64,000 nt of DNA. It comes from Escherichia phage PBM-3. Shown piece after piece: positions 4,491 through 64,000 of the stretch; position 1 is the stretch's first letter; each line of letters starts with the position of its first letter. A program made the translations under genes and the position numbers. The notes under the pieces were generated by a model. The model did not search any database and was not told the origin of the DNA. It saw only the letters and a list, made by a program, of their open reading frames with translations. The stretch is taken from the sequence record PV053165; one strand, given 5' to 3'.

Positions 4491-5115
4491 ACAGAAACTT
4501 GCTGCGAAAGGTGGTGCAGTGGGAGGGGTTGTCGCTGCTATTCTGGGGGCAGTGTTCTATATGGAAGGGGGTTACGTAAACAATCCTCGTGACCCAGGTG
4601 GGGAAACTAATCATGGTATTACCCAATCAGTAGCTAAGACTCATAAAGAAGTTCTGGCTACTGAGTATGGTTGGGATGGTTCTATGAAGGGTTTATCTAA
4701 AGAGATGGCTGCTGAGATATACATTGATGACTATGTACTTAAACCTAACTTCGTAGCCTTCGCTGATATATCTCCTGCTGTAACGCATAAGCTAGTAGAT
4801 GCTGGTGTTAATACTGGTGTAACCCGTCCTGCTAAGTGGTTGCAGATGTCTCTTAATGAAATGTCACGTAATGGCAAAGACTACCCTAAAATACAGGTTG
4901 ATGGTAAAGTCGGTACAAGTACTGTTAATGCATATAAAGCATTACAGAAAAAACGGGGCAAAGTTGCAGCATGTCAGGTAATGATTAAGCTGCTTGATGC
5001 TAAACAACTGAACCACTATACCTCATTAAACATGCCAGACTTTACGTATGGTTGGGTAGCTAACCGAATAGGCAATGTGCCACTGGAGGCATGTAATGAA
5101 GATGCTAATCTCTAA
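4480..5115 (+). CDS. Endolysin, GH108-type muramidase with C-terminal peptidoglycan-binding domain; possible SAR-type N-terminus
   Basis: EGGYVNNPRDPGGETNHGIT matches the GH108 signature. N-terminus has a weakly hydrophobic Gly/Ala-rich segment (AAKGGAVGGVVAAILGAVF). RBS AAGGAAA before ATG. Confidence 0.75.
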   Translation: MKAKQKLAAKGGAVGGVVAAILGAVFYMEGGYVNNPRDPGGETNHGITQSVAKTHKEVLATEYGWDGSMKGLSKEMAAEIYIDDYVLKPNFVAFADISPAVTHKLVDAGVNTGVTRPAKWLQMSLNEMSRNGKDYPKIQVDGKVGTSTVNAYKALQKKRGKVAACQVMIKLLDAKQLNHYTSLNMPDFTYGWVANRIGNVPLEACNEDANL

Positions 5116-5602
5116 AGGTTGGCCTTATCTTCTGGTGGTGGTCCTTGGGGCCACCATTTACTTTTGGGGCAATTCCAATGGGCAGTCTACTGTTCAAAAG
5201 AAATGGGATGCCCAAAAGGTCGAAGACCAAAAGGCAACGCAAAAATTACAGGACAAATACAATGCTCTCCAAAGAAACCATAGTTATGAAGTCGGGTTAC
5301 TCACTTCCCGGTTGCAGACGGCTGAGAGTAATTACGCAAGCGAGCTTGCTCGCGTTAGCAGTGATTACGACAGCCGGATGCAACAGTCTGAAAGACGAGC
5401 ATCGGTATATAAACGTCAAGCCGAAGCCGGAACCCTTGAGTGCAGAAGTCTTGCAAGCCATGCAGCCAGACTCGACAATAGTCTTGAAGAAGGCAGACGT
5501 TTGGTTGAAGAACTCCGGGCAACTGTTAGACTCCGTGACAGCCAACTAATTGAGTTGGGTAAACAGATTCAGGCTGACCGTAAACTTTTTGAACAGGAAT
5601 AA
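5096..5602 (+). CDS. i-spanin (Rz-like)
   Basis: GGAGG 7 nt upstream of ATG at 5096. N-terminal TM ([16 protein letters not shown]) followed by a long charged coiled-coil; immediately after the endolysin. Confidence 0.6.
5262..5549 (+). CDS. o-spanin (Rz1-like), embedded in the +1 frame of the i-spanin gene
   Basis: Lipoprotein-type signal ending in lipobox-like TTAGC ([12 protein letters not shown]) and a Pro-containing mature part; lies entirely inside the Rz-like ORF in another frame. Confidence 0.55.
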   Translation: MLSKETIVMKSGYSLPGCRRLRVITQASLLALAVITTAGCNSLKDEHRYINVKPKPEPLSAEVLQAMQPDSTIVLKKADVWLKNSGQLLDSVTAN

Positions 5603-5604
5603 CT

Positions 5605-5874
5605 ATGGAACACCAAGACACTTTTAAGCCTTTACCAGACCCGGCTCAATCAGAGAAGTTAACGGACTGGAAGAAGGAACCAAGTATCCAATTACTGAAG
5701 GGTGATTTGGAATCTGCTAAACCTGCTCACGATGCAATCATGGCACAGATTCGTGAGTGGAATGATTTAATGGAAGTAAAGGGTAAGGCTAAACCCCCAA
5801 AGGTTAAGGGACGCTCGCAAGTCCAGCCTAGACTGGTTCGGTCAGGCAGAGTGGCGTTATGCTCCATTGTCTGA
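5605..5874 (+). CDS. Short ORF, probably the N-terminal part of the portal gene separated by a frameshift
   Basis: ATG at 5605 with AGGAA RBS directly after the spanin stop. Its 3' end overlaps the frame-2 portal ORF, which is open from 5780 but has no ATG/GTG start of its own before the TTG at 5867. Confidence 0.35.
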
Positions 5875-7873
5875 ACCATTCCTCTCGTCTAACAAACTAT
5901 TTAAGGTAACTCCGGTTACTTTTGAAGATGAGTTAGCTGCACGCCAGAATGAGCTAGTTCTTAACTACCAATTCCGTACTCAGCTTAATAAAGTAAAACT
6001 GGTAGATGATTACGTGCATAGTGTCGTAGATGACGGTACTGGTATTGCTCGTATCGGTTGGGAACGTAAGACTATTAAGATTAAAACAGAAACTCCAGTC
6101 TTCCAGTTGTATCCAATTGAGAACCAGGAACAAGCAGATGTTCTCCAACAGGCTTTGCAGCTTCAGGCAGAGAATCCCCGTGAGTATGACGAAACAATGC
6201 CAGAAGATATCAAAGAAGCTGTTAACTACTTCAATGAAACTGGAGAAGCTACTTATGCAATTCAGACAGGGGTCACTGAAGTAGAAGTAGAAAAAGCACT
6301 GGTTAACAGACCTACCGTTGAAATGCTTAATCCTAATAACGTAGTTATTGACCCGAGCTGCAATGGTGATTTGGATAAGGCTCTGTATGCAGTCATTTCC
6401 TTTGAGACTTGCAAAGCAGACCTTATGAAAAACAAAGACCGTTATCACAACCTAGATAAAATTGACTGGGAGAGTTCCAGCCCCATTACTGACCCAGACC
6501 ATGAAAGTAAAACCCCTAGCGATTTCCAGTTTAAGGATGCACTTCGTAAGAAGGTAGTTGCTTATGAGTACTGGGGATTCTACGACATCAATGATGATGG
6601 TTCACTGGAACCAATTGTTGCTACCTGGATTGGTTCTACTCTTATTCGTATGGAGAAGAACCCATTCCCAGATGGTAAGTTACCATTGGTAGTTGTTCCT
6701 TATATGCCTCGTAAACGTGAACTCTATGGTGAAGCTGATGCTGAATTGCTAGGAGATAACCAAGCAATTCTTGGTGCAACCATGCGTGGGATGATTGACC
6801 TGTTGGGCCGAAGTGCAAATGGTCAACGTGGTTATCCTAAAGGGATGTTAGATACCTTGAACCGTCGTCGATACGATGATGGACAAGACTACGAATATAA
6901 CCCAATGCAGGGCAATCCTAGTCAGGCCATTATGGAACACAAGTTCCCTGAGTTACCCCAGTCGGCAATAGTAATGACTCAGATGCAAAACCAGGAAGCA
7001 GAAGCACTAACGGGTGTTAAAGCATTCTCGGGTGGTGTAACTGGTGAAGCTTACGGAGATGTAGCTGCTGGTATTCGTGGTGTACTAGATGCAGCATCCA
7101 AACGTGAGATGGCAATCCTTCGTCGATTAGCTAAGGGTATGGCAGACATTGGTACTAAGATTTGTGCAATGAATGCTGTGTTCTTATCTGAGAAAGAAGT
7201 AGTACGTATTACTAACGAGCAGTACGTAGAGATTAACCGTGAAGACCTTAAAGGTAATTTCGACATTGAAGTTGATATTAATACTGCTGAGATTGATAAC
7301 CAGAAATCCCAGGACTTGAGCTTCATGGTTCAAACGTTAGGTAATACGGTTGACCAGACTATTACGTTATCTCTTGTAGCTAAGATTGCAGAACTTAAAC
7401 GTATGCCAGACCTTGCTCATGAGTTACGTACATGGCAACCACAACCAGACCCTATGGAAGAACAGCTTAAGCAATTGGCAATTCAGAAAGCACAGCTTGA
7501 GAACGAAGAGCTGCAAAGTAAGATTGCACTCAATATGGCTAAGGCTAAAGAGGCTGCTTCTAGTGGTGACCTTAAAGATCTGGATTATCTGGAACAGGAA
7601 TCTGGTACTAAACATGCTCGTGACATGGAAAAACAAAAAGCACAATCTCAAGGAAACCAGAATCTTCAGATAACTAAGGCGTTGACAACACCTACTAAAG
7701 AAGGTGAAACTACCCCCAACATATCTGCTGCTGTTGGATATAACGCTTTGACTAATGGGAACTCTATACCAGAACGTGACTTAGCTGCACAACAAGACCC
7801 AGCTTATTCACTTAGTTCCCAATTCTATGACCCTAGCCAAGACCCAGCATCGGCTCTTGGCATGAACTTGTAA
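5867..7873 (+). CDS. Portal protein (main body)
   Basis: 668-aa ORF between the lysis module and the scaffold/capsid genes, with an acidic C-terminus. Assigned as portal from size and position in an N4-like late operon. Confidence 0.55.
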
Positions 7874-7886
7874 GGCAGACCTTCAC

Positions 7887-8231
7887 ATGAGTAAAGAATC
7901 AACAATCGCAGGACTGGAACATCGACTGGAAGCTGCTAAAGGTGCAGTTGCACACGCAGAAGATGTACGTAAACTTTTGGAGTATCCACTGTTCCGTAAA
8001 GTAATTCTTCGTCAGTTCTGTGTGGAAGATTGTGCACGTTACGTGCAGGAGTCTGGTGACCCACTGCTTGAACCTAATAACCGTGCAGATGCATTGAACA
8101 TGGCTCAAGCTGCTGGTCACTTACGTCGTTGGCTCGACCTCGCCATTCGTATGGGCGAAAACGAAGCTGACGTTATTCTTCAGGTAGAAGAAGAACTCGA
8201 TGCAGTTCGTGCTGAACCTGAAGATGAATAA
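7887..8231 (+). CDS. Hypothetical head-assembly protein
   Basis: 114-aa ORF between portal and putative scaffold; no recognisable motif. Confidence 0.4.
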   Translation: MSKESTIAGLEHRLEAAKGAVAHAEDVRKLLEYPLFRKVILRQFCVEDCARYVQESGDPLLEPNNRADALNMAQAAGHLRRWLDLAIRMGENEADVILQVEEELDAVRAEPEDE

Positions 8232-17478: not shown

Positions 17479-20400
17479 TTGAACAGGAAACATGCTATGT
17501 CAACATTTGACCGTCTGGCAGGTTTCGCAGACAGCATCACTAATGCTAAGCAAGTCGATGTCTCTACTGCAACCTCTCAGAAGCAAGCTGCACAAGGGCA
17601 AAGCCCTTTCCAATTAACCCCAGAGAATGCTTACAATCTCCAAACTGGTCGTGTAGGTAATCTTGGAATCGGTGCATTCGAACCAGGTTCACTTCAGGCA
17701 GATTTCACTCAAGCCTCCCCATTAGAAATTCTTAATAAATACGGTAATGAGCAAGGTCTACAGATTCTTAATAGCCGAGCTAATGCTGCTGATGTTGTAC
17801 GTCAGGACTTATCTAAGCAACGTACTAACGCAGAAGCATTTGGTGATACTCTTTCTGGTGTTGGTCTTGGTGTTGCTAATACCCTTGGGGGCATTGCTGC
17901 TCTTGGTACGGGTTTGGTCAATGATAATGCCGGGGCATCCATTGCTTCCGGGATGGATTGGCTGAATGAAGGGGTACACAATCTACAGTCTGACGCACTG
18001 AATGCTACCCGTAAGGTTGTTCAGAATCAGAACCAGATTTCTGCACAAAAGAACCAGAAACTCTACGAAGAAGACATTAAAAATGGAGAGAGCAGTTTGG
18101 TTGCCTCTCTGTCTCGTATTGGTCGTGATGCTTTTGATTCTGTTGCTAATACGCTTGATAATGGTATGGCTGCTACTGATGGGCTGAGTGAAGGTGTTGG
18201 TTCTCTCTTTACCGGTGGTCCATTAATTCGTGGTGTATCTGCACTCGGTAAAGTAATGGTAGGTGGTGATAAAGCTGTTAAGGGTATTACCTTAGCTGCT
18301 GAGTTAGGTTCACGTCCTGCACAGGTTGCATTGTCTGCTGGTCGTGTTGCTGCACCTGCTATTGCAATTGGTGGTATGGAAGCTGGTGGTGCATACCAAC
18401 AGACTGCTTCCGAAATCATGAAGATGTCCCATCAAGAATTGGCAAGTAAGTCTCCTGTTTATCAACAGCATATCGCTGATGGTTTATCTCCTGATGAAGC
18501 ACGTCGCCAAACTGCATCTGAAACGGGTATCATTGCTGCTGGCTTAACTGCTCCGGTTGCTGCTGCTACTGGTCCTCTGGTATCCAAATTTGAACTTAAC
18601 CCACTTAAGGTAGGTTCGCTGGCTGGTGCTGGTTCTAACATGCTACGTGAAACAGTAGAAGAAGGTATTCAGTCTGGTACAAGTCAGTTTGCACAGAACA
18701 AGGCAATTCAGGGTAATGTAGATGCTAAGCGTGATTTGCTTAAAGGTGTCGGTGAGCAAGCAGGTCTTGGTGCACTCTACGGCTTCGGTAGTGCTGGTGT
18801 TGCTCAGGCTCCAGGTACAACTGTTAAAGCTGTTGGTGCTTCTGCTGGGCCTGCTTTACGTACTACTCTGGCTGGTGCTTCTCTGGTTGGTAGTGCATTA
18901 GCAAAAGCTGCCTCTCCTATTACTAACATCCTGGTTCAGCGTGGCGAAGAAGTTGCTAAGCGTAATGAGCAAGCATCCCCTGTATCAGATGCTACGGTTA
19001 ATGCTGCTGCACAAGAAGCTACTGCTCAAGCAGAACAAGCACAAGCAACTGTACAGGAAGCAGTAGATGCAATGGACATTTCTCCTGAAGAGAAAGCTGC
19101 TGCTACTCAGTATGCTGCTGACTTAACTCAGGCAATGAAGTTTGACCCAGTAGAACTGGAGCAAGCTAGTCCTACAATCCGTGAAGCTGTTTCTGGTTCC
19201 ACTAACCGTGTGGAAGCTATTCAGAAGATGGCAGACCTGGTTAATACTACTGAAGACCCTAACGTTCAAATGGAAGCTGCAATCCAGATGTATGACAACA
19301 TCATGTCTATGGATAGCTTCATTAACCGTGATCCTGGTGCTTTAGCTAATCTGGAACAGGGTTCTCCTGCTGCTAATATTGTTGACCAGTTCTCCGGCCT
19401 GATGGCTAACGTTCAGAATACACCAAAGGTACTTCGTGCATTCCGTGCCATCCATTCTATGATTCAGGAACAGGCTGAAGCAGGTAAACTGAAAGCTACC
19501 GAAGAAGCTAACCAAGCCCAAGCAAACAACATTGCTATGGCTGCTGATATGTCTCCAGAAGTACTGGATGCAGACTCAGTGAACATGGTTCTGAAACATG
19601 CAAGTGAAGGTAAGATTACACTGGGGAATCGTCAGCGTGCTGCCCTGCAATCTGCTGCTGCTCTATTGCAAGGAGCACGAGAATTTGACGCTAAAGCAGA
19701 AGAACTAGGCTTACGTCCTCAAGACATTGTTAGTAAACAGATTAAAACCGACGAGTCTCGTTCTAATGAAGGTCAGTACTCTGCGTTGCAACATGCTAAA
19801 CGCATTCGTTCTGCGTACAACTCTGGTAACTTCGATTTGGCTTCCGCTTACCTCGACGACTTTATGAAGTTCGCCCAGCACATGCAGAATAAGGTCGGAG
19901 CGTTGAATGAGCATCTGATTTCTGGGAATGCGGATAAGAATAAGTCTGTCCATTATCAGGCTCTTACTCCCTCCCGTGAATGGGTACGTAGTCGTACTGG
20001 TCTTGGTGTCAATCCGTATGATACCAAGTCGGTTAAGTTTGCCCAGCAAGTAGGACTGGAGGCCAAAACCGTAGCTGATATTGCTAACGCACTTGCTACG
20101 GCTTACCCGGAGCTTAATGTTTCTCATGTGAAGGTTACTCCATTAGATTCACGTCTGGACAAGCCTGCTGCCCAGGTAGTTAAAGAGTTCCGTCAAGGTG
20201 GTCTTGATGCCACTCAGTCTCAACAGACCAATGAACCAGTGAATCAGGTTGATGAAACTCCTGCACCAGCGCAAGAGACTACTACTACTACTGTACAGCC
20301 TAAAGCTAAACCAGTGGTAGAAAATAAGACTGTTCCTGTTAAAGAGGCTAGTTCAAAAGCAGAAGAAGTCTCTACTACTAAGTCTGAAACAGTAGATGCT

Positions 20401-23400
20401 ACCCTCACCAATGAGGATACCACTCAAAAAGTAGCTGAAACTAAAACGGAAATGGAAACAGTTTTCCCTGTCTATAACAATGACAAGACACCGAACCAGT
20501 TCCTGAAATCATTTACCCTGCCGGAAGAACCTAAGTCTCGCACCATTGGTTCTGAATCCCCTTTGACTGATATTAAGCAAGCACTGTCTTCTACTGCACG
20601 CTTTGAAGCATTCACTCAAAAAGAAAATAACGCTCTCACAAGTGATGTGATTAAGCGTTATCAGGACTTAATGGGCTTTGGTGAAACTCTGAAGACTACT
20701 CTGTCTGATCGTCTGGCTAAGTTTCTTGCTAATAAGAACGTTGGTAAACGCTTTGCAGAAGGCACAGAGGCTAACCGTTGGGTAGGTGGTAAGTTACTTA
20801 ATATCGTAGAGAAAGACGGAGACACCTTTAAGTTCAATGACCAGTTGTTAGAGACTGCTGTACTTGCTGGTCTGCAATGGCGACTGACTGCTACACAGAA
20901 TGCTGCTGTTAAAGACATGAAAGATGTAGCTGCTATTACTGGAGTAGAAGCATCCTTGTTACCTGAAGGTATCCTGGCTGAATTTGAGAATGCTCAGACT
21001 CTGGTTGAAGCTACTAACTCACTGGCTCAAAAGATTGAATCTTACTGGGGATTGAATCGTAATCCTAATGCACCACTGGGTTATACCAAAGGTATTCCAA
21101 TGGCAATGGCTACAGAGATTCTGTCTTCTCTCATTGAGATGGGTGAAGTTAAAGAGTCTATGCTTGATGTGTCTGAGATTGACCCAGACTCTAATAAGAC
21201 CGTCGGTCTGTATACCATTGAGAAGCTGGATGATAACGATGCCATTAACAAGTTCCCTACTGCTATCGAGGAAGCTGTTCTCGTAGAACCAGAAGAGAAA
21301 ATGTACTTTGGTGATGATATTCCTTCCGTGGCTCAAACTCAGTTACGTAACCCTGCTGTTAAGAATACCCCAGAGCAGAAAGCTGCTCTTAAAGCAGAAC
21401 AGGCTACCGAGTTCCGTGTACACATGCCGATGGTTAACTTCTATGAAGCATTAGGTCGTGACAACATTCTGGAACTGATGGGTGCTGGTACTCTTAATCC
21501 TGAACTGCTGAACGTGAACACTGCTAAGTCACTGGAGGGTAAAAACCTGTCAGTGTCTATGGCATATGATTCCCTGTTCGGTGTAATCAACCAGTTACAG
21601 GAACAGGAGAATGGTCTGGATACGCCTATTCACTATGGTTACAACATGACCCGTGTAGGTCGTATGCAGATGTTAGGTAAGAACAACCCACAATCCAGTA
21701 AACTGGTTCGTGAAGCAATTCTGCCAACCTTCTCTACTATTGACTTGAGTAATGAAAACAGCCAAACATTCTCTGACTTCCAGCTAGGACTGGCTCAGGC
21801 ATTGGGTATCAAGGTACATAATATGTCCCGTGAAGCTATGTCTGAAAAGCTGACCAAAGCTCTGGAAGGTAATCTGAAACCTGCTGTTGATATGATGGTT
21901 GAGTTTGATAAGTCTGGCCACTTACCAGCTGATGCAGTAGATATTCTGAAGACTTCTTTGGGTGGCGATAAATCATTCGTAGCTCTCATGGCTCTTATGG
22001 AATATGCCCGTTACCTGAACAGTGATGACCGTGCCAACTTTAATACCCCACTGTACGTTGAAGCCGATGGTGTAACCAACGGACCAATCAACGCAATGAT
22101 ATTAATGACAGGTGGTAAGTTCACTTCAGACTGGATTAAGAATACTGCTAAAGGTGGTCTGTTCTTCGGTAAAGCTGGTAAGACTATGAATGAGCATCGT
22201 TCACAGGATGACAGTGTTGACCTGTATGAAGCATCTACCAATGGTCTGCAACAAGCACTTAATGAGTTACGTACTACTTACCGTAACAACGTTCCGGTTA
22301 TGAACCAAATGAATCATCTTCAGAAGTTAATGGACCTGTTTATTAAAGACTTTAACCTGAATGAAGACGGTACTCTGGACCTAAAACGTGGTATCGCTAA
22401 AAACCCACTGACCATTACCATCTATGGTTCAGGTGCTCGTGGTATTGCTGGCAAGATGGTTAGTGCAATTACTGATACCATCTATGAACGCTTCAGTGAT
22501 GTTCTGCAAGCTCGTGCTGCTGACCCTAGTATTTCCCCAGCTATGGCAATGTTTGGTAAGGAGGCTGCGTCTGAGGCTGATGCTCAGGCTATGCTGGATA
22601 CTTTCCTTACTTCTATGGAAGCACTGACTGGTAATGTTCCAGTTATGCGTAAAGGTGAATTGTCTATTCAACAGGTAGAAGGTGCTCTGACTGGTAAGTT
22701 AGACCCTCAGAAGTTTACCGTATCGGGTAATGCCCTGAAGAACTTACAAGAGAACATGCTTCACCTGTTCGTTGAACCAATGCGTACTGGTATCCGGAAT
22801 ACTGTTGGGGAAGGTCTGATGCATTCTACTGAGAACTTGCAGAAGGCTACCCAGATTCAGTCTTTGGTTCTACAAGACATGTTCCAACAAGCAGTACAGG
22901 CTAAGCTGGCAGAAAAAGAAAAAGACCCAACCTGGAAGAAGGGTGATTTCTTAACACAGAAAGAACTGAATGAAATTCAGGAATCATTGTCTCCACTGGC
23001 TCCAATGATTGAGACTGGTTCACAGACTTTCTATATTGCTGGTAGTGAGAATACTGATGTTGCTAACCAGGTACTGGCTACCAACTTAGATGACCGTATG
23101 CGTGTGCCAATGAGCATCTATGCTCCTTCTCAGGCAGGCGTTGCAGGTATTCCATTTATGACCATTGGCACTGGTGATGGCATGATGATGCAGACCCTTT
23201 CTACTATGAAAGGTGCTCCGAAGAATACCCTGAAAATCTTTGATGGTATGAACATTGGTATCGACAACATCACTGATGCAAGTCGTAAAGCTAACGAGGC
23301 TGTATACACTTCCTGGCAGGGTAACCCTATCAAGAATGTTTATGAGTCTTTTACTAAGTTCATGAAGAACGTAGACTTCAGCAAACTATCTGATGAAACC

Positions 23401-26400
23401 AAACAGGCTATCGCTAAATCTGCTCTGGAATATGACCAGCGTGAAGGTGCTACCGATGACCTGTTACGTGTTGGTGCTGAACAGATTGAACGTAACCTGC
23501 GTAATATTGCTCTGGGTGTAGATATTCGTCACAAAGTAATGAACCAGGTACAGACTACTGTTGACCAGATGGCTGCTGTTGGTGCTCCTTATGTGAACAA
23601 CGGTAAAATCTCTCTGGAAGGTCTGACCGTAGACCAACAAGTAGCTAAGCTAAATGAACTGTTCGATGCTGAATTAAACAAACGTCGTGATGCAGTACGT
23701 GCTGCTAAAGTAGAACCAGTGAAAGAAGTGCCAGCAATGGAACAGGTTGGTCGTGTACTGAAGTCTGGTGTACGCCTACTGTCTAATACTGCTATCTCTA
23801 AGCTGGCTAAAGAGATGTCTCCGGAACAGCAAGCAGTACTGAAAGAAGTACAGAAATCCCTTGCTGCTAAAGATTATAAGGTTGTTTACGGTACACCTTC
23901 CCAACTGGATGCTTATGCTATTGAGAAGAATATTACTCGCCCAGCACCAGAAGATATTGAAGCTGCTGAAGCTGGTAATGCGTATGGTTGGACTAACTTT
24001 GAAGATAAGACCATCTACTTAGTTACCCCTTCCTTAGAGACTCTGGTTCATGAATTGGTGCATGCTTCTACTTTTGAATCTGTACTGGCTCACTATGAGG
24101 GTACTCCTAATGAAGCGGTCCAGAACATTGAAGACCTGATGAACCAGTTCCGTGCTCTGGATGTTAAGGATGAATCCCCGGCAGTTCGGGAAGCATATGC
24201 AGATGCTCTTAATACTATTAACGGTCATCTATCTAATGGCTTCATTGAGCCAGCAATGGCTAAAGCTGCTGCACTGAATGAGTACATGGCATGGGGTTTA
24301 ACTAACCGTGAACTGATTAGTAAGCAGAAGAAAACCACTGCACTGAAGACTATGGTTCAGGCTGTATATGAAGCAATCAAGCGTCTGGTATTTGGGCGTA
24401 AGAAAGCACCAGCTAATGCAGATGATATGTTCTCTGGCTTACTGTTTAACTCGTCCGTAGTTATGCGTGGGCAAGCTCCTACTGCTGCTGTAGCCAAAGA
24501 TACTACTCTGTTCCATAACAAAACGTATGGTGACAATACTCGTCTGGAAGAGCTAGGGAAAACCTTCGATAAACTGATTACTGACTACATTGGTTCTGAA
24601 CCAGTACAGCAAGTAATTCGTAAAGGTAAGTTCTCTGATGCAGTGGTTAATGCGACTAAAGTAACTCGTGATGTTCAGGCTCATGGCTTCACTATGAATA
24701 TGCAGGAACAACGTCTCTTTACTAACATTGTTGCTGCACTGGCTACTGAAGCTGCTATTAATCCTGCTGCTCTGGCTCGTGCACAGGAATACTACACACA
24801 TGTTACTAAGAACCTGACCGTTGAGTCATTCATGGCTGACCCAGATAGTACTAACCCTGCTGACCGTTACTATGCACAGCAGAAGTTCGATACCATCATG
24901 GGTGCTAACAACATTGAGTTTGATGCACAAGGCCGTTCTTCCTTACTGCCTACCTTTGTTGGTCTGGCAATGGTAAGTGAAGAAGTGCGTAAAGTACTGG
25001 CTGACATTCCTGTTATGAAAGTAGACAAGAAATCTGGCAATACCGCTGATGCAATGCTGACTAACATCGGTACTGCTGCAATGGCTAGTCTGAATGCTCG
25101 TGTAGCAGGAGATACTAAAGCTACCAACGTACAGGAAGGTATGGATGCACTGGCTCAGACAATCATGCAGACGAGTCTCAATGCGCAGTCCTTCTATGAT
25201 TCCATTGCTACTCCTAGTGGTAATGCTATCGACCGTGCTAACCAGTATCTGGTGGATTCTATTGATGTACTGTCTACCCGTGCTTTAGAGGGTGCTCGTG
25301 AAGTTGCAGCTAATACCAAGAACCCGTTGGTTAAAGGTGCTGCTCATGCTGCACAACTAATAGCTGCTATTGCTACAGAGAAAAATGGTGCAATCGTAGC
25401 TGAGGGTGTTATGGCTGCAATGAACCAGGGTAAGGTATGGCAACCTTTCCATGACCTGGTTAATGACTTAACTGGTCGTACTAAGAGCAATGCTTCTGTA
25501 TATGATTTGATTAAAGCAGTGCGTGCACAGGTACAGGCTGACCGTCAGCAGTTCCGTGAACATTTGCCTACCACTATTGCATCTAAGTTCAGCCGTAAGC
25601 TTACTAATGATGAGTGGAAAGCAATGCATACCGGTATGGGTAAAACCGACTTAGCTGTTCTGCGTGACACTATGTCTCTGGGTGAAATTCGTGACTTGCT
25701 GACTGACCAAAAGATTGTTGACCGTGAAGTGAATAAGCTGGAAGCAGATTTGCAGAAACAAGCAGGACGTAACTGGCCTTTGATTAGCCGTAAATCTAAG
25801 CAACTGGCTCAGTACATGATTAATGGCACAGTTGGTAATAACTTGCTGCGTAATGCTACTGCAATCTCTCGTATGCTGGGTGAACGACAGGCTGCACGTT
25901 CTACTGTAGATGTAGCTCAACTGGATAAACTGATTACTCTGTATGCACTGGAAGCAATGAGTAAGACTGACCGTGAGATGTTATCTTCACTGGCTCAGAC
26001 AGAGATTGAAGGCATGGACTTCGCTACTTCTTATCTGGTTGGTCAGCGTAAAGATGAAATGGCTAAAGCCAAATCTGATACTCGTGCAACTCTGAACCAG
26101 TACAAAGGGTATATTCCTGGTGAGACTAAACAGGGTGTTAACTTGATTGTTGCTGAAGATAGTCAGTTTGCTGATTTGATTGAGAAGTCCTATGTACGTC
26201 TGGGTACTTATCAGGGTAGCTCTGCTAATCGTGGTCCAGCACGTAGCTACTACTTTGCACCGGTACAGGCACAGGCTCCATTCTCGCAAGGTATCTTACA
26301 GAACGTTCGCAATACTGCTGGTGGTGTAGACCTTGGTACAGGCTTTACGATGGGTACAATGGTAGCTGGTCGTATCACTGACAAGCCTTCTGTAGACCGT

Positions 26401-27852
26401 ATCACTAAAGCACTGGCTCGCGGTGAACGTGGTAATGAACCACTGCTGCCTGTATATGATGATAAAGGCAATGTGGTTGCTTATGAGCAATCTATTGACC
26501 CTAACATGCTGAAGCACATTGAGGGTGAGAACCATCTCGCTCGTGCAATCGGTGTATGGCGTGGTCGTCAGGTAGAGGAAGCTAAGGCTCAGCGTTTTAA
26601 CGATATGCTGATTGAGAACCTGCATAGCATGTATGAAAACGACATTAAAATGTCTGCCTCTAACAAGTCACAGTACGTTAACCTTCTTGGTTCTAAACTG
26701 GACCCAGTAACTGCTGATGCCCTTAAGCTGATGAACAGTGAAACTCGTCAGAAAGCAGAAAGTCTGTTTGGTCCTGGTGAGTTGTGGGTACGTCGTGACA
26801 TGCTGAATGATGCACTGGGCTATCGTGCAGCTTCCGTAGGTGATGCCTGGTCTGGCAATTCTCGTTGGTCACCAGAAACACTGGATACCTTCAAGAAAGC
26901 TATGTTGGGTGTATTCGGCAACCGTGCTTATAAGTATGTAATGGGTGGTGAGAACCTGGTTCAAAACTTAGTTAAAGAAGCTAAGACTCTGATTGTAGTT
27001 AAATCAGTAGTTGTTCCTGCTGTTAACTTCCTGGCTAACCTTTACCAGATGGTTGGTCGTGGTGTACCTGTTAAGAACATTGCTAAGAGCATTCCACAGA
27101 AGACTGCTGAGATTAACCAGTACCTGAAATCTCGTCTGCGTCAGGTAGATGCAGAAGCAGAATTACGTGCAGCTACTAACCCGAACCAGATTCGTAAGCT
27201 TAAGGCTGAAATTCAGTCCATCACTGATAGTCATAAGCGTATGAGTATCTGGCCTCTGTTAGAAGCTGGTGAGTTTTCTTCAATTGCAGATGCTGGTATT
27301 GGACGAGATGACATCCTGATTACTGAAGGTAAACTTCACGAATACATGGATAAACTGGCTGATAAGTTACCTAAGTCTGTACGTAATGCTGGACGTTATG
27401 CCCTTATCACCAAGGATACTGCTTTATTCCAGGGTATCCAGAAGACGGTTGAGTACTCTGACTTTATTGCTAAAGCAATCATCTATGATGATTTGACTCA
27501 GCGTAAAGGTAAGACTCGTGAAGAAGCACTTGGACGTGTAACGGAAGAGTTCATTAACTATGACCGTCTGCCTGGTCGCTTCCGTGGGTATATGGAAAGT
27601 GTTGGTCTTATGTGGTTCTATAATTTTAAGATTCGTTCTGCAAAAATTGCAGTATCCATGATTCGTAACAACCCGGTACACGCAGCTATGGCTATGTTGG
27701 CTCCAACTCCTACCATGTTTGGTAATGTTGGTTTACCTATTCAGGACAACATCTTCAGTATTGCTGCACAAGGCAATCTCGGTTACTCCTGGGGCTTCGG
27801 TCAGGGACTTCGTGCCCATAACCTTAACCCTTGGCTCAATCTAGCTAACTAA
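17479..27852 (+). CDS. Virion-encapsidated RNA polymerase (giant, 3457 aa)
   Basis: Single ~10.4 kb ORF. Central region has single-subunit RNAP motifs: PLYVEADGVTNG (motif A-like), RGIAKNPLTITIYGSG (exact Rx3Kx7YG motif B), KIFDGMNIG (motif C-like). Size and position match N4-type vRNAP. Confidence 0.8.
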   Translation: MNRKHAMSTFDRLAGFADSITNAKQVDVSTATSQKQAAQGQSPFQLTPENAYNLQTGRVGNLGIGAFEPGSLQADFTQASPLEILNKYGNEQGLQILNSRANAADVVRQDLSKQRTNAEAFGDTLSGVGLGVANTLGGIAALGTGLVNDNAGASIASGMDWLNEGVHNLQSDALNATRKVVQNQNQISAQKNQKLYEEDIKNGESSLVASLSRIGRDAFDSVANTLDNGMAATDGLSEGVGSLFTGGPLIRGVSALGKVMVGGDKAVKGITLAAELGSRPAQVALSAGRVAAPAIAIGGMEAGGAYQQTASEIMKMSHQELASKSPVYQQHIADGLSPDEARRQTASETGIIAAGLTAPVAAATGPLVSKFELNPLKVGSLAGAGSNMLRETVEEGIQSGTSQFAQNKAIQGNVDAKRDLLKGVGEQAGLGALYGFGSAGVAQAPGTTVKAVGASAGPALRTTLAGASLVGSALAKAASPITNILVQRGEEVAKRNEQASPVSDATVNAAAQEATAQAEQAQATVQEAVDAMDISPEEKAAATQYAADLTQAMKFDPVELEQASPTIREAVSGSTNRVEAIQKMADLVNTTEDPNVQMEAAIQMYDNIMSMDSFINRDPGALANLEQGSPAANIVDQFSGLMANVQNTPKVLRAFRAIHSMIQEQAEAGKLKATEEANQAQANNIAMAADMSPEVLDADSVNMVLKHASEGKITLGNRQRAALQSAAALLQGAREFDAKAEELGLRPQDIVSKQIKTDESRSNEGQYSALQHAKRIRSAYNSGNFDLASAYLDDFMKFAQHMQNKVGALNEHLISGNADKNKSVHYQALTPSREWVRSRTGLGVNPYDTKSVKFAQQVGLEAKTVADIANALATAYPELNVSHVKVTPLDSRLDKPAAQVVKEFRQGGLDATQSQQTNEPVNQVDETPAPAQETTTTTVQPKAKPVVENKTVPVKEASSKAEEVSTTKSETVDATLTNEDTTQKVAETKTEMETVFPVYNNDKTPNQFLKSFTLPEEPKSRTIGSESPLTDIKQALSSTARFEAFTQKENNALTSDVIKRYQDLMGFGETLKTTLSDRLAKFLANKNVGKRFAEGTEANRWVGGKLLNIVEKDGDTFKFNDQLLETAVLAGLQWRLTATQNAAVKDMKDVAAITGVEASLLPEGILAEFENAQTLVEATNSLAQKIESYWGLNRNPNAPLGYTKGIPMAMATEILSSLIEMGEVKESMLDVSEIDPDSNKTVGLYTIEKLDDNDAINKFPTAIEEAVLVEPEEKMYFGDDIPSVAQTQLRNPAVKNTPEQKAALKAEQATEFRVHMPMVNFYEALGRDNILELMGAGTLNPELLNVNTAKSLEGKNLSVSMAYDSLFGVINQLQEQENGLDTPIHYGYNMTRVGRMQMLGKNNPQSSKLVREAILPTFSTIDLSNENSQTFSDFQLGLAQALGIKVHNMSREAMSEKLTKALEGNLKPAVDMMVEFDKSGHLPADAVDILKTSLGGDKSFVALMALMEYARYLNSDDRANFNTPLYVEADGVTNGPINAMILMTGGKFTSDWIKNTAKGGLFFGKAGKTMNEHRSQDDSVDLYEASTNGLQQALNELRTTYRNNVPVMNQMNHLQKLMDLFIKDFNLNEDGTLDLKRGIAKNPLTITIYGSGARGIAGKMVSAITDTIYERFSDVLQARAADPSISPAMAMFGKEAASEADAQAMLDTFLTSMEALTGNVPVMRKGELSIQQVEGALTGKLDPQKFTVSGNALKNLQENMLHLFVEPMRTGIRNTVGEGLMHSTENLQKATQIQSLVLQDMFQQAVQAKLAEKEKDPTWKKGDFLTQKELNEIQESLSPLAPMIETGSQTFYIAGSENTDVANQVLATNLDDRMRVPMSIYAPSQAGVAGIPFMTIGTGDGMMMQTLSTMKGAPKNTLKIFDGMNIGIDNITDASRKANEAVYTSWQGNPIKNVYESFTKFMKNVDFSKLSDETKQAIAKSALEYDQREGATDDLLRVGAEQIERNLRNIALGVDIRHKVMNQVQTTVDQMAAVGAPYVNNGKISLEGLTVDQQVAKLNELFDAELNKRRDAVRAAKVEPVKEVPAMEQVGRVLKSGVRLLSNTAISKLAKEMSPEQQAVLKEVQKSLAAKDYKVVYGTPSQLDAYAIEKNITRPAPEDIEAAEAGNAYGWTNFEDKTIYLVTPSLETLVHELVHASTFESVLAHYEGTPNEAVQNIEDLMNQFRALDVKDESPAVREAYADALNTINGHLSNGFIEPAMAKAAALNEYMAWGLTNRELISKQKKTTALKTMVQAVYEAIKRLVFGRKKAPANADDMFSGLLFNSSVVMRGQAPTAAVAKDTTLFHNKTYGDNTRLEELGKTFDKLITDYIGSEPVQQVIRKGKFSDAVVNATKVTRDVQAHGFTMNMQEQRLFTNIVAALATEAAINPAALARAQEYYTHVTKNLTVESFMADPDSTNPADRYYAQQKFDTIMGANNIEFDAQGRSSLLPTFVGLAMVSEEVRKVLADIPVMKVDKKSGNTADAMLTNIGTAAMASLNARVAGDTKATNVQEGMDALAQTIMQTSLNAQSFYDSIATPSGNAIDRANQYLVDSIDVLSTRALEGAREVAANTKNPLVKGAAHAAQLIAAIATEKNGAIVAEGVMAAMNQGKVWQPFHDLVNDLTGRTKSNASVYDLIKAVRAQVQADRQQFREHLPTTIASKFSRKLTNDEWKAMHTGMGKTDLAVLRDTMSLGEIRDLLTDQKIVDREVNKLEADLQKQAGRNWPLISRKSKQLAQYMINGTVGNNLLRNATAISRMLGERQAARSTVDVAQLDKLITLYALEAMSKTDREMLSSLAQTEIEGMDFATSYLVGQRKDEMAKAKSDTRATLNQYKGYIPGETKQGVNLIVAEDSQFADLIEKSYVRLGTYQGSSANRGPARSYYFAPVQAQAPFSQGILQNVRNTAGGVDLGTGFTMGTMVAGRITDKPSVDRITKALARGERGNEPLLPVYDDKGNVVAYEQSIDPNMLKHIEGENHLARAIGVWRGRQVEEAKAQRFNDMLIENLHSMYENDIKMSASNKSQYVNLLGSKLDPVTADALKLMNSETRQKAESLFGPGELWVRRDMLNDALGYRAASVGDAWSGNSRWSPETLDTFKKAMLGVFGNRAYKYVMGGENLVQNLVKEAKTLIVVKSVVVPAVNFLANLYQMVGRGVPVKNIAKSIPQKTAEINQYLKSRLRQVDAEAELRAATNPNQIRKLKAEIQSITDSHKRMSIWPLLEAGEFSSIADAGIGRDDILITEGKLHEYMDKLADKLPKSVRNAGRYALITKDTALFQGIQKTVEYSDFIAKAIIYDDLTQRKGKTREEALGRVTEEFINYDRLPGRFRGYMESVGLMWFYNFKIRSAKIAVSMIRNNPVHAAMAMLAPTPTMFGNVGLPIQDNIFSIAAQGNLGYSWGFGQGLRAHNLNPWLNLAN

Positions 27853-63295: not shown

Positions 63296-63499
63296 TTAAC
63301 TGTTATTAGGTCGGTGCTGTTTGATAGCTTTAAGCAAGGCTATCATGTCATCAATTTCTTTCTCGTTAAGTTTCCACAAGATGGAATCCCCATCAGGATA
63401 ACCCTTAGCGGAACCATGATTCACGAGAACTACTCCGTCTACAATTGCTCCAAATAGTTTTCCTCTTTGGATAGCAATCTTCTCTATGTTAAATGCCAT
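63296..63499 (-). CDS. Hypothetical small early protein
   Basis: 67-aa ORF. Confidence 0.35.
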   Translation of the reverse strand: MAFNIEKIAIQRGKLFGAIVDGVVLVNHGSAKGYPDGDSILWKLNEKEIDDMIALLKAIKQHRPNNS

Positions 63500-63548
63500 A
63501 AATAGGATTCTCTTAAAGTAGAATAACTATCTACTTTTGACTATCTAT

Positions 63549-63857
63549 CTAATGTTCAAAACAGGAGACTCCGAAGAGCCTCCTAGGTGCGTTTTCTTTA
63601 TCCTTACAGAATTCTTCAATACTTTTCTTACGCAGAGTCTCAGTCATAGCTGTCTCCTCTGCCAGTTTATTAACAAAGGTATGCATTTCTAATTTAGTAC
63701 GGATGGCTTGTTTCTCTGCCATAGTACTTACATATGAATTAAGCATACCTACTGCTTTAGTTGCTGTACCAAATGTATCTGCAACAGTAGTAGCAGCTGA
63801 GTTAACAGTACCAAGTAAAGTTCCTGCGGTCATACGTACAGTAGCGGTAGTAGTCAT
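63549..63857 (-). CDS. Hypothetical early protein
   Basis: 102-aa Thr/Ala-rich ORF; first gene downstream of the hairpin at 63900. Confidence 0.4.
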   Translation of the reverse strand: MTTTATVRMTAGTLLGTVNSAATTVADTFGTATKAVGMLNSYVSTMAEKQAIRTKLEMHTFVNKLAEETAMTETLRKKSIEEFCKDKENAPRRLFGVSCFEH

Positions 63858-63899
63858 GATGATAGCTCCAATAGTTGATGATAGGACGACATGTCCATA

Positions 63900-63914
63900 A
63901 CATGCGGAGCATGT
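63900..63914 (-). promoter_or_regulatory. Candidate virion-RNAP promoter hairpin (GC-GGA-GC core, 3-nt loop)
   Basis: + strand ACATGC-GGA-GCATGT with CCATAA immediately 5'; ~45 nt upstream of the 63549..63857 gene start. Confidence 0.5.
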
Positions 63915-64000
63915 GTAACGTGTAAGGTGGGGTAGGGTAGTGGCTACACCGTCAACATACCGGGGGGGATGGTTGAGTGTAAGGGTGTAGCCCCAGCCAC

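Follow-up and report, generated by a model that had tools for sequence, protein, structure and literature searches.

A private 2-bp deletion splits the portal gene in the sequence record of an N4-like coliphage

Positions 5605-7873 of the window (the whole 64,000-nucleotide stretch of DNA analysed here, from Escherichia phage PBM-3, record PV053165) are one gene, which encodes the portal protein of an N4-like (Schitoviridae, Gamaleyavirus) coliphage. It is a known gene that carries a private, frame-breaking deletion of 2 bp (CC, between 5840 and 5841), and neither a recoding site nor a separate small gene. We put at about three in four the probability that this deletion arose as an error in the record, whether during sequencing, assembly, consensus calling or editing. 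The real phage most likely encodes a normal portal of 756 aa.

Results

Two overlapping ORFs in the region of the portal gene

As written, the portal region is read as two overlapping ORFs on the plus strand. The first starts with an ATG at 5605, located 2 nt past the TAA of an upstream Rz-like spanin ORF (5075..5602) and preceded by a Shine-Dalgarno-like AGGA (5595..5598, +), which was read from the sequence and leaves a 6-nt spacer. This ORF, in frame 1, encodes 89 aa and runs from 5605 to 5874, its stop codon being the TGA at 5872-5874. The second ORF, in frame 2, is open from 5780, just past a TAA (5777-5779), and ends at 7873; it is listed with 668 aa from a TTG at 5867 (5867..7873). No ATG, GTG or TTG is present in frame 2 between 5780 and this TTG, and no Shine-Dalgarno-like sequence was found at a useful distance from it. 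The initial annotation had described the same layout, namely an 89-aa ORF behind a ribosome-binding site and a portal-sized frame without ATG or GTG, listed from a TTG that lacks a ribosome-binding site, and we recovered each of these elements in the sequence. The AAACCCCCAAAGG tract (A3C5A3; 5791..5803, +), to which it had drawn attention within the overlap, is also present and encodes Lys-Pro-Pro-Lys(-Val) of the portal. We found no site resembling a promoter or a terminator that would separate the 89-aa and 668-aa ORFs.

A 2-bp deletion at 5840/5841

Using megablast, we compared positions 5400-8000 with the GenBank phages. This search returned 88 records, for the most part from Gamaleyavirus (Schitoviridae, N4-like) coliphages, and in 83 of them 80% or more of the query was covered. 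The best match was Escherichia phage PBM-2, with 99.9% identity. The region spans 2603 nt in all of the 30 full-length relatives listed vs. 2601 nt in the window. With a 201-nt query centred on the deletion (5740-5940), the 35 matching records all had two more bases than the window (35/35).

The alignment with PBM-2, UE-S5b and Bp4 places the gap, of 2 nt and with no other in the region, between 5840 and 5841 (deletion junction 5840..5841, +). The relatives have GTTCGCCGTCAGG and the window has GTTCGGTCAGG; at the junction itself, GGTTCGCCGTCAGG in the relatives corresponds to GGTTCGGTCAGG in the window. CGCCGT has thus become CGGT, and CC, which is missing between two G residues, is the sole dinucleotide whose removal produces the observed string. 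Searching the flanks of the deletion for microhomology or direct repeats gave only short repeats at chance level. Codon 80 (Arg) is lost through the deletion, and the reading frame changes from there on; this arginine lies in the conserved motif LVR(R/K)QAEWRY.

We then mapped where the homology changes frame, a check that the initial annotation had proposed. In a tblastn search with the PBM-2 portal, residues 1-79 match 5605-5841 in frame 1 and residues 81-756 match 5843-7870 in frame 2, both with 100% identity, so that only Arg80 is lost between the two segments. From tblastn and the profiles described below, the gene can therefore be divided into portal codons 1-79 in frame 1 (5605..5841, +), which are the genuine portion of the 89-aa ORF, and portal codons 81-756 plus the stop codon in frame 2 (5843..7873, +). 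The remainder of the 89-aa ORF is an out-of-frame tail of 10 residues and the TGA (5842..5874, +), without homology. The size of about 755 aa initially predicted for the joined product fits the 756-aa portal of the relatives. In PBM-2, UE-S5b and Bp4, this portal is annotated as a single CDS of 2271 nt, with its ATG at the equivalent of 5605.

The A3C5A3 tract had been taken as a likely slippery or error-prone site, and we rejected it as the place of the frame break. PBM-2, UE-S5b and Bp4 all have this exact tract, and it is unchanged in eight of the nine relatives that were checked base by base, the ninth differing by the last base alone; the portal gene is intact in all nine. In addition, the frame-1 homology runs on for 38 nt, and the switch at 5841/5843 is located outside homopolymer runs, 37 nt past the end of the C5 tract. 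Of the suspected indel at C5, the indel itself stands (two bases are missing relative to all relatives) and its position does not, since the bases are missing at 5840/5841. A nearby homopolymer tract is thus an unreliable guide to the position of a frame break.

The variation among relatives also follows a single frame. In nine relatives, third positions of one continuous frame account for 23 of the 28 variable columns upstream of the junction and for 55 of the 68 downstream. In the zone equivalent to 5780-5874, this holds for 12 of 13 variable columns, and no stop codon was found in this zone in any of the nine relatives. The overlap between the two ORFs is a consequence of the 2-bp deletion within a single gene and is not due to chance.

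Both pieces belong to one portal protein

We searched the phage records with the 89-aa ORF (tblastn) and obtained matches in 255 of them. In all 60 records listed, residue 79 is the last one aligned, and the gene under the match is mostly annotated as a portal protein. The last 10 residues had no homolog in these phage records.

Profile searches assigned both pieces to the same families. The 89-aa piece matches positions 2-70 of phrog_1216 (E = 1e-21) and positions 2-53 of the Pfam family SU10_portal (PF23899), with 31.1 bits for a cut-off of 30. The 668-aa piece matches positions 79-683 of phrog_1216 (E = 5.9e-242) and positions 63-593 of PF23899, with 443 bits for the same cut-off of 30. Both pieces thus exceed the curated Pfam cut-off, and the intact PBM-2 protein covers positions 2-683 of phrog_1216 and 2-593 of SU10_portal. 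As written, the window lacks the uninterrupted ORF of about 756 aa and holds a frameshifted (pseudo)gene.

The solved schitovirus portals extend this observation. The PBM-2 ortholog aligns over residues 1-756 with residues 1-760 of the Moo19 portal (9D80), and over residues 3-754 with N4 gp59 (9LBZ). Four solved portals (N4 gp59, Moo19, B2 gp39 and DEV gp80) align across the junction, where they have in common the motif VQPxL(V/I)R(R/K)QAEWRY(A/S)xL(S/T)EPFLS, the most conserved of the N-terminal part. In the virion maps, the ordered, modelled portion comprises residues 19-693 of N4 gp59 (PMC13434306) and residues 17-675 of the Moo19 portal (PMC11654681). The 79 residues detached by the deletion, together with the lost residues 80-88, are therefore part of the folded portal and do not form a disposable tail. 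In the UE phages, which are close relatives, the portal was found in purified particles by LC-MS/MS (PMC11927229).

In the intact protein, the TTG at 5867 (5867..5869, +) encodes Leu89. Its position is an internal Leu codon in all relatives, and portal homologs starting at the equivalent of 5867, which the initial annotation had considered, were not encountered: the relatives examined start at the equivalent of 5605. This TTG is therefore without support as an initiation site, and its listing as a start is an artefact of the ORF listing.

Neighbouring genes and genome end

The position of the gene is conserved, the order Rz-like spanin (N4 gp60) - portal - gp58 homolog being found in PBM-2, Bp4 and UE-S5b; in the window, the neighbours of the portal are the ORFs 5075..5602 and 7887..8231. 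Within the Rz-like spanin gene (5075..5602), we observed a candidate embedded o-spanin of the Rz1 type in the +1 frame (5286-5549, +). It has an ATG at 5286, a hydrophobic leader, a T-A-G-C lipobox with the Cys codon at 5379, and a stop codon at 5547-5549. An o-spanin is annotated at this locus in some relatives.

Two labels in the PBM-2 record drew our attention. A gene of 10,356 nt (PV029541.1 35975-46330, corresponding to about 17500-27850 of the window) is annotated 'DNA polymerase'; we presume from its size and position that it is the giant virion RNA polymerase of N4-like phages. The homolog of gp57 is annotated 'tape measure protein' although the phage is a podophage. We take both labels to be likely annotation errors.

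Over positions 1-63415, the window aligns with PBM-2 (63828-412) with no mismatch and a single gap, the 2 nt of the portal deletion. At the end of the genome, 174 bp (window 63416-63589) are missing from PBM-2 (junction 411/412) and present in UE-S5b, and UE-S5b has 58 bp that are missing from the window at 63588/63589, just before GCGTTTTC. The 174-bp and 58-bp indels are nested and have one boundary in common, at a distance of 10 nt from the 401-bp terminal repeat. They may represent real deletion variants, or else the assemblies may have resolved the repeat boundary differently. A 67-aa ORF on the minus strand (63296..63499) is kept in the window through the 174 bp and lost in PBM-2, and the nested indels change the C-terminus of a 102-aa ORF (63549..63857). 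At positions 63600-64000, the window has a copy of the direct terminal repeat (401 bp) that PBM-2 and the UE phages carry; a terminal repeat of this size has been reported for the UE phages (PMC11927229). As base 64000 of the window corresponds to nucleotide 1 of PBM-2, the window ends at the physical end of the genome.

Discussion

Record error or real mutation

In the sequence as written, a ribosome starting at ATG 5605 would translate 79 correct codons and 10 wrong ones before stopping at 5872-5874. The remaining 676 portal codons would lie in the next frame and lack a start codon. Lytic phages require a portal. We favour an error of the record because a lytic phage without portal could not be propagated and because the otherwise identical genome is intact: the indel is private to one record, and PBM-2, nearly identical, does not have it. 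The products of 89 and 668 aa had no exact match in the public protein or gene collections. We found no literature on phage PBM-2.

Some observations argue against an error of the record. The missing CC is flanked by G residues and lies outside any long homopolymer, and it does not correspond to a classic homopolymer miscall. Consensus deletions of 2 bp are uncommon with Illumina sequencing. Illumina was the platform used for the UE phages, closely related isolates from the same country (PMC11927229). Moreover, the window comes from a record independent of PBM-2, with its additional 174 bp near the terminal repeat. A window that would be a corrupted copy of PBM-2 is ruled out by these 174 bp of genuine phage sequence, missing from PBM-2. 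As the two entries are independent, a genuine difference between two stocks is possible.

That the deletion is real and recent, with loss of function, nevertheless appears rather unlikely to us. The window would then represent either a defective portal-null variant that reached consensus level in a lysate, complemented by co-infecting wild type, or a subpopulation captured by the assembler. The separate origin of the record and its 174-bp difference from PBM-2 near the terminal repeat are in line with this explanation, and a mutation explains a site outside a homopolymer run no less well than a base-calling error does. However, the absence of any substitution in 63.4 kb relative to PBM-2 leaves hardly any time for the two to have evolved independently, the portal is essential, and the allele is absent from the collections that were scanned: an exact search for a 25-mer carrying the deletion gave no match in IMG/VR, the JGI metagenomes or the GTDB genomes. 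The intact 27-mer was present in 7 IMG/VR contigs. At best, a genome with this deletion would make a little N-terminally truncated portal, through re-initiation at TTG 5867 after the TGA at 5872. Coupling of termination and re-initiation is known at overlapping stop and start codons; the overlap of TTG 5867 with the stop codon of the 89-aa ORF (TTGTCTGA) may permit it here. Against this possibility, the TTG has no Shine-Dalgarno sequence and sits in the arm of a predicted hairpin, and both fragments would lack residues 80-88 (RQAEWRYAP), within the most conserved N-terminal motif.

We consider it very improbable that the deletion is real in a viable stock, with a near-native portal produced by an inefficient, unprogrammed +1 shift or by assembly of the two fragments. 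Such a shift would occur at the rare CGG codon (GUU CGG U/CAG) and give a product lacking only Arg80. If this were true, the portal, present in 12 copies per virion, would tolerate either being made in drastically reduced amounts or having its N-terminus split. Such tolerance of a portal lesion would be of modest interest, but we saw no sign of it.

Programmed frameshift and separate small gene

A programmed +1 frameshift joining the two ORFs, which was one of the readings initially proposed, has an equally slight chance in our judgement. The shift would occur at one of two sites, CCC-CCA in the C5 tract or the CGG codon at 5839-5841. CCC-C is a sequence known to be prone to +1 shifting, and in E. 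coli the Arg codon CGG is rare. In addition, an RNA hairpin is predicted at 5842-5874, starting right at the junction, with an 8-bp stem (UCAGGCAG / UUGUCUGA) whose 3' arm holds TTG 5867 and the TGA at 5872; with the whole 100 nt folded, it is modestly better than shuffled sequences (z = -2.1). This hairpin lies inside the portal coding sequence; it is, however, built of sequence common to the intact relatives and is incorrectly spaced. As relatives with an intact gene also have it, it is probably not tied to recoding. As to the proposed sites, 16 conserved residues would give way to unrelated ones after a shift in the C5 tract, and re-pairing of the P-site tRNA in the +1 frame is impossible at CGG-UCA. 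No slippery sequence is present at the frame switch, GTT CGG/TCA (5836-5844), and a Shine-Dalgarno-like element 3 nt upstream of the junction is absent. The two-frame layout occurs in no relative: all have one continuous ORF, and the two extra bases are found in 35/35 close relatives.

A genuine separate gene of 89 aa followed by a portal normally initiated at TTG 5867, another of the initial proposals, agrees with the ORF layout alone and is extremely improbable, since the ORF corresponds to residues 1-79 of the portal, with matches in 255 phage records and four solved structures, followed by 10 out-of-frame residues without homolog, since the portal profiles (phrog_1216, SU10_portal) span both pieces, and since TTG 5867 has no ribosome-binding site.

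Consequences for annotation

We therefore recommend the annotation of a single portal gene at 5605..7873 carrying a frameshift, the likely correction being the re-insertion of CC after 5840. Neither a small hypothetical protein followed by a TTG-initiated portal nor a recoding site should be annotated. The main value of this finding lies in quality control and annotation.

Comparison with known systems

The layout of the window resembles +1 frameshifting in prfB (RF2) in that an upstream ORF, closed by a stop codon, overlaps with a longer one in the +1 frame. This resemblance is only superficial. The prfB gene has the shift site CUU UGA C, a Shine-Dalgarno-like stimulator 3 nt upstream and a conserved two-frame layout, none of which is found in the window. 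The recoding elements of prfB are conserved among its homologs.

N4 gp59 (PDB 9LBZ, 9YF4, 9YF8) and the portal of Shigella phage Moo19 (9D80) are much closer systems. Both are collinear with the window gene from about residue 1-3 (E = 0), and both have in common with it the motif LVRRQAEWRY and membership in PF23899 and phrog_1216. These portals are single polypeptides of 760-763 aa (760 for Moo19, 763 for gp59), whereas the window gene needs a frame correction.

The closest system is the portal of PBM-2 (XQQ57251.1, PV029541.1 55954-58224), identical to the product of the window at residues 1-79 and 81-756. The two genes also have the same flanks, with the Rz-like spanin upstream and the gp58 homolog downstream, and the 63.4 kb around them are identical. 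In PBM-2, the CC is present and the ORF of 756 aa is uninterrupted, whereas in the window the same protein is split into ORFs of 89 and 668 aa.
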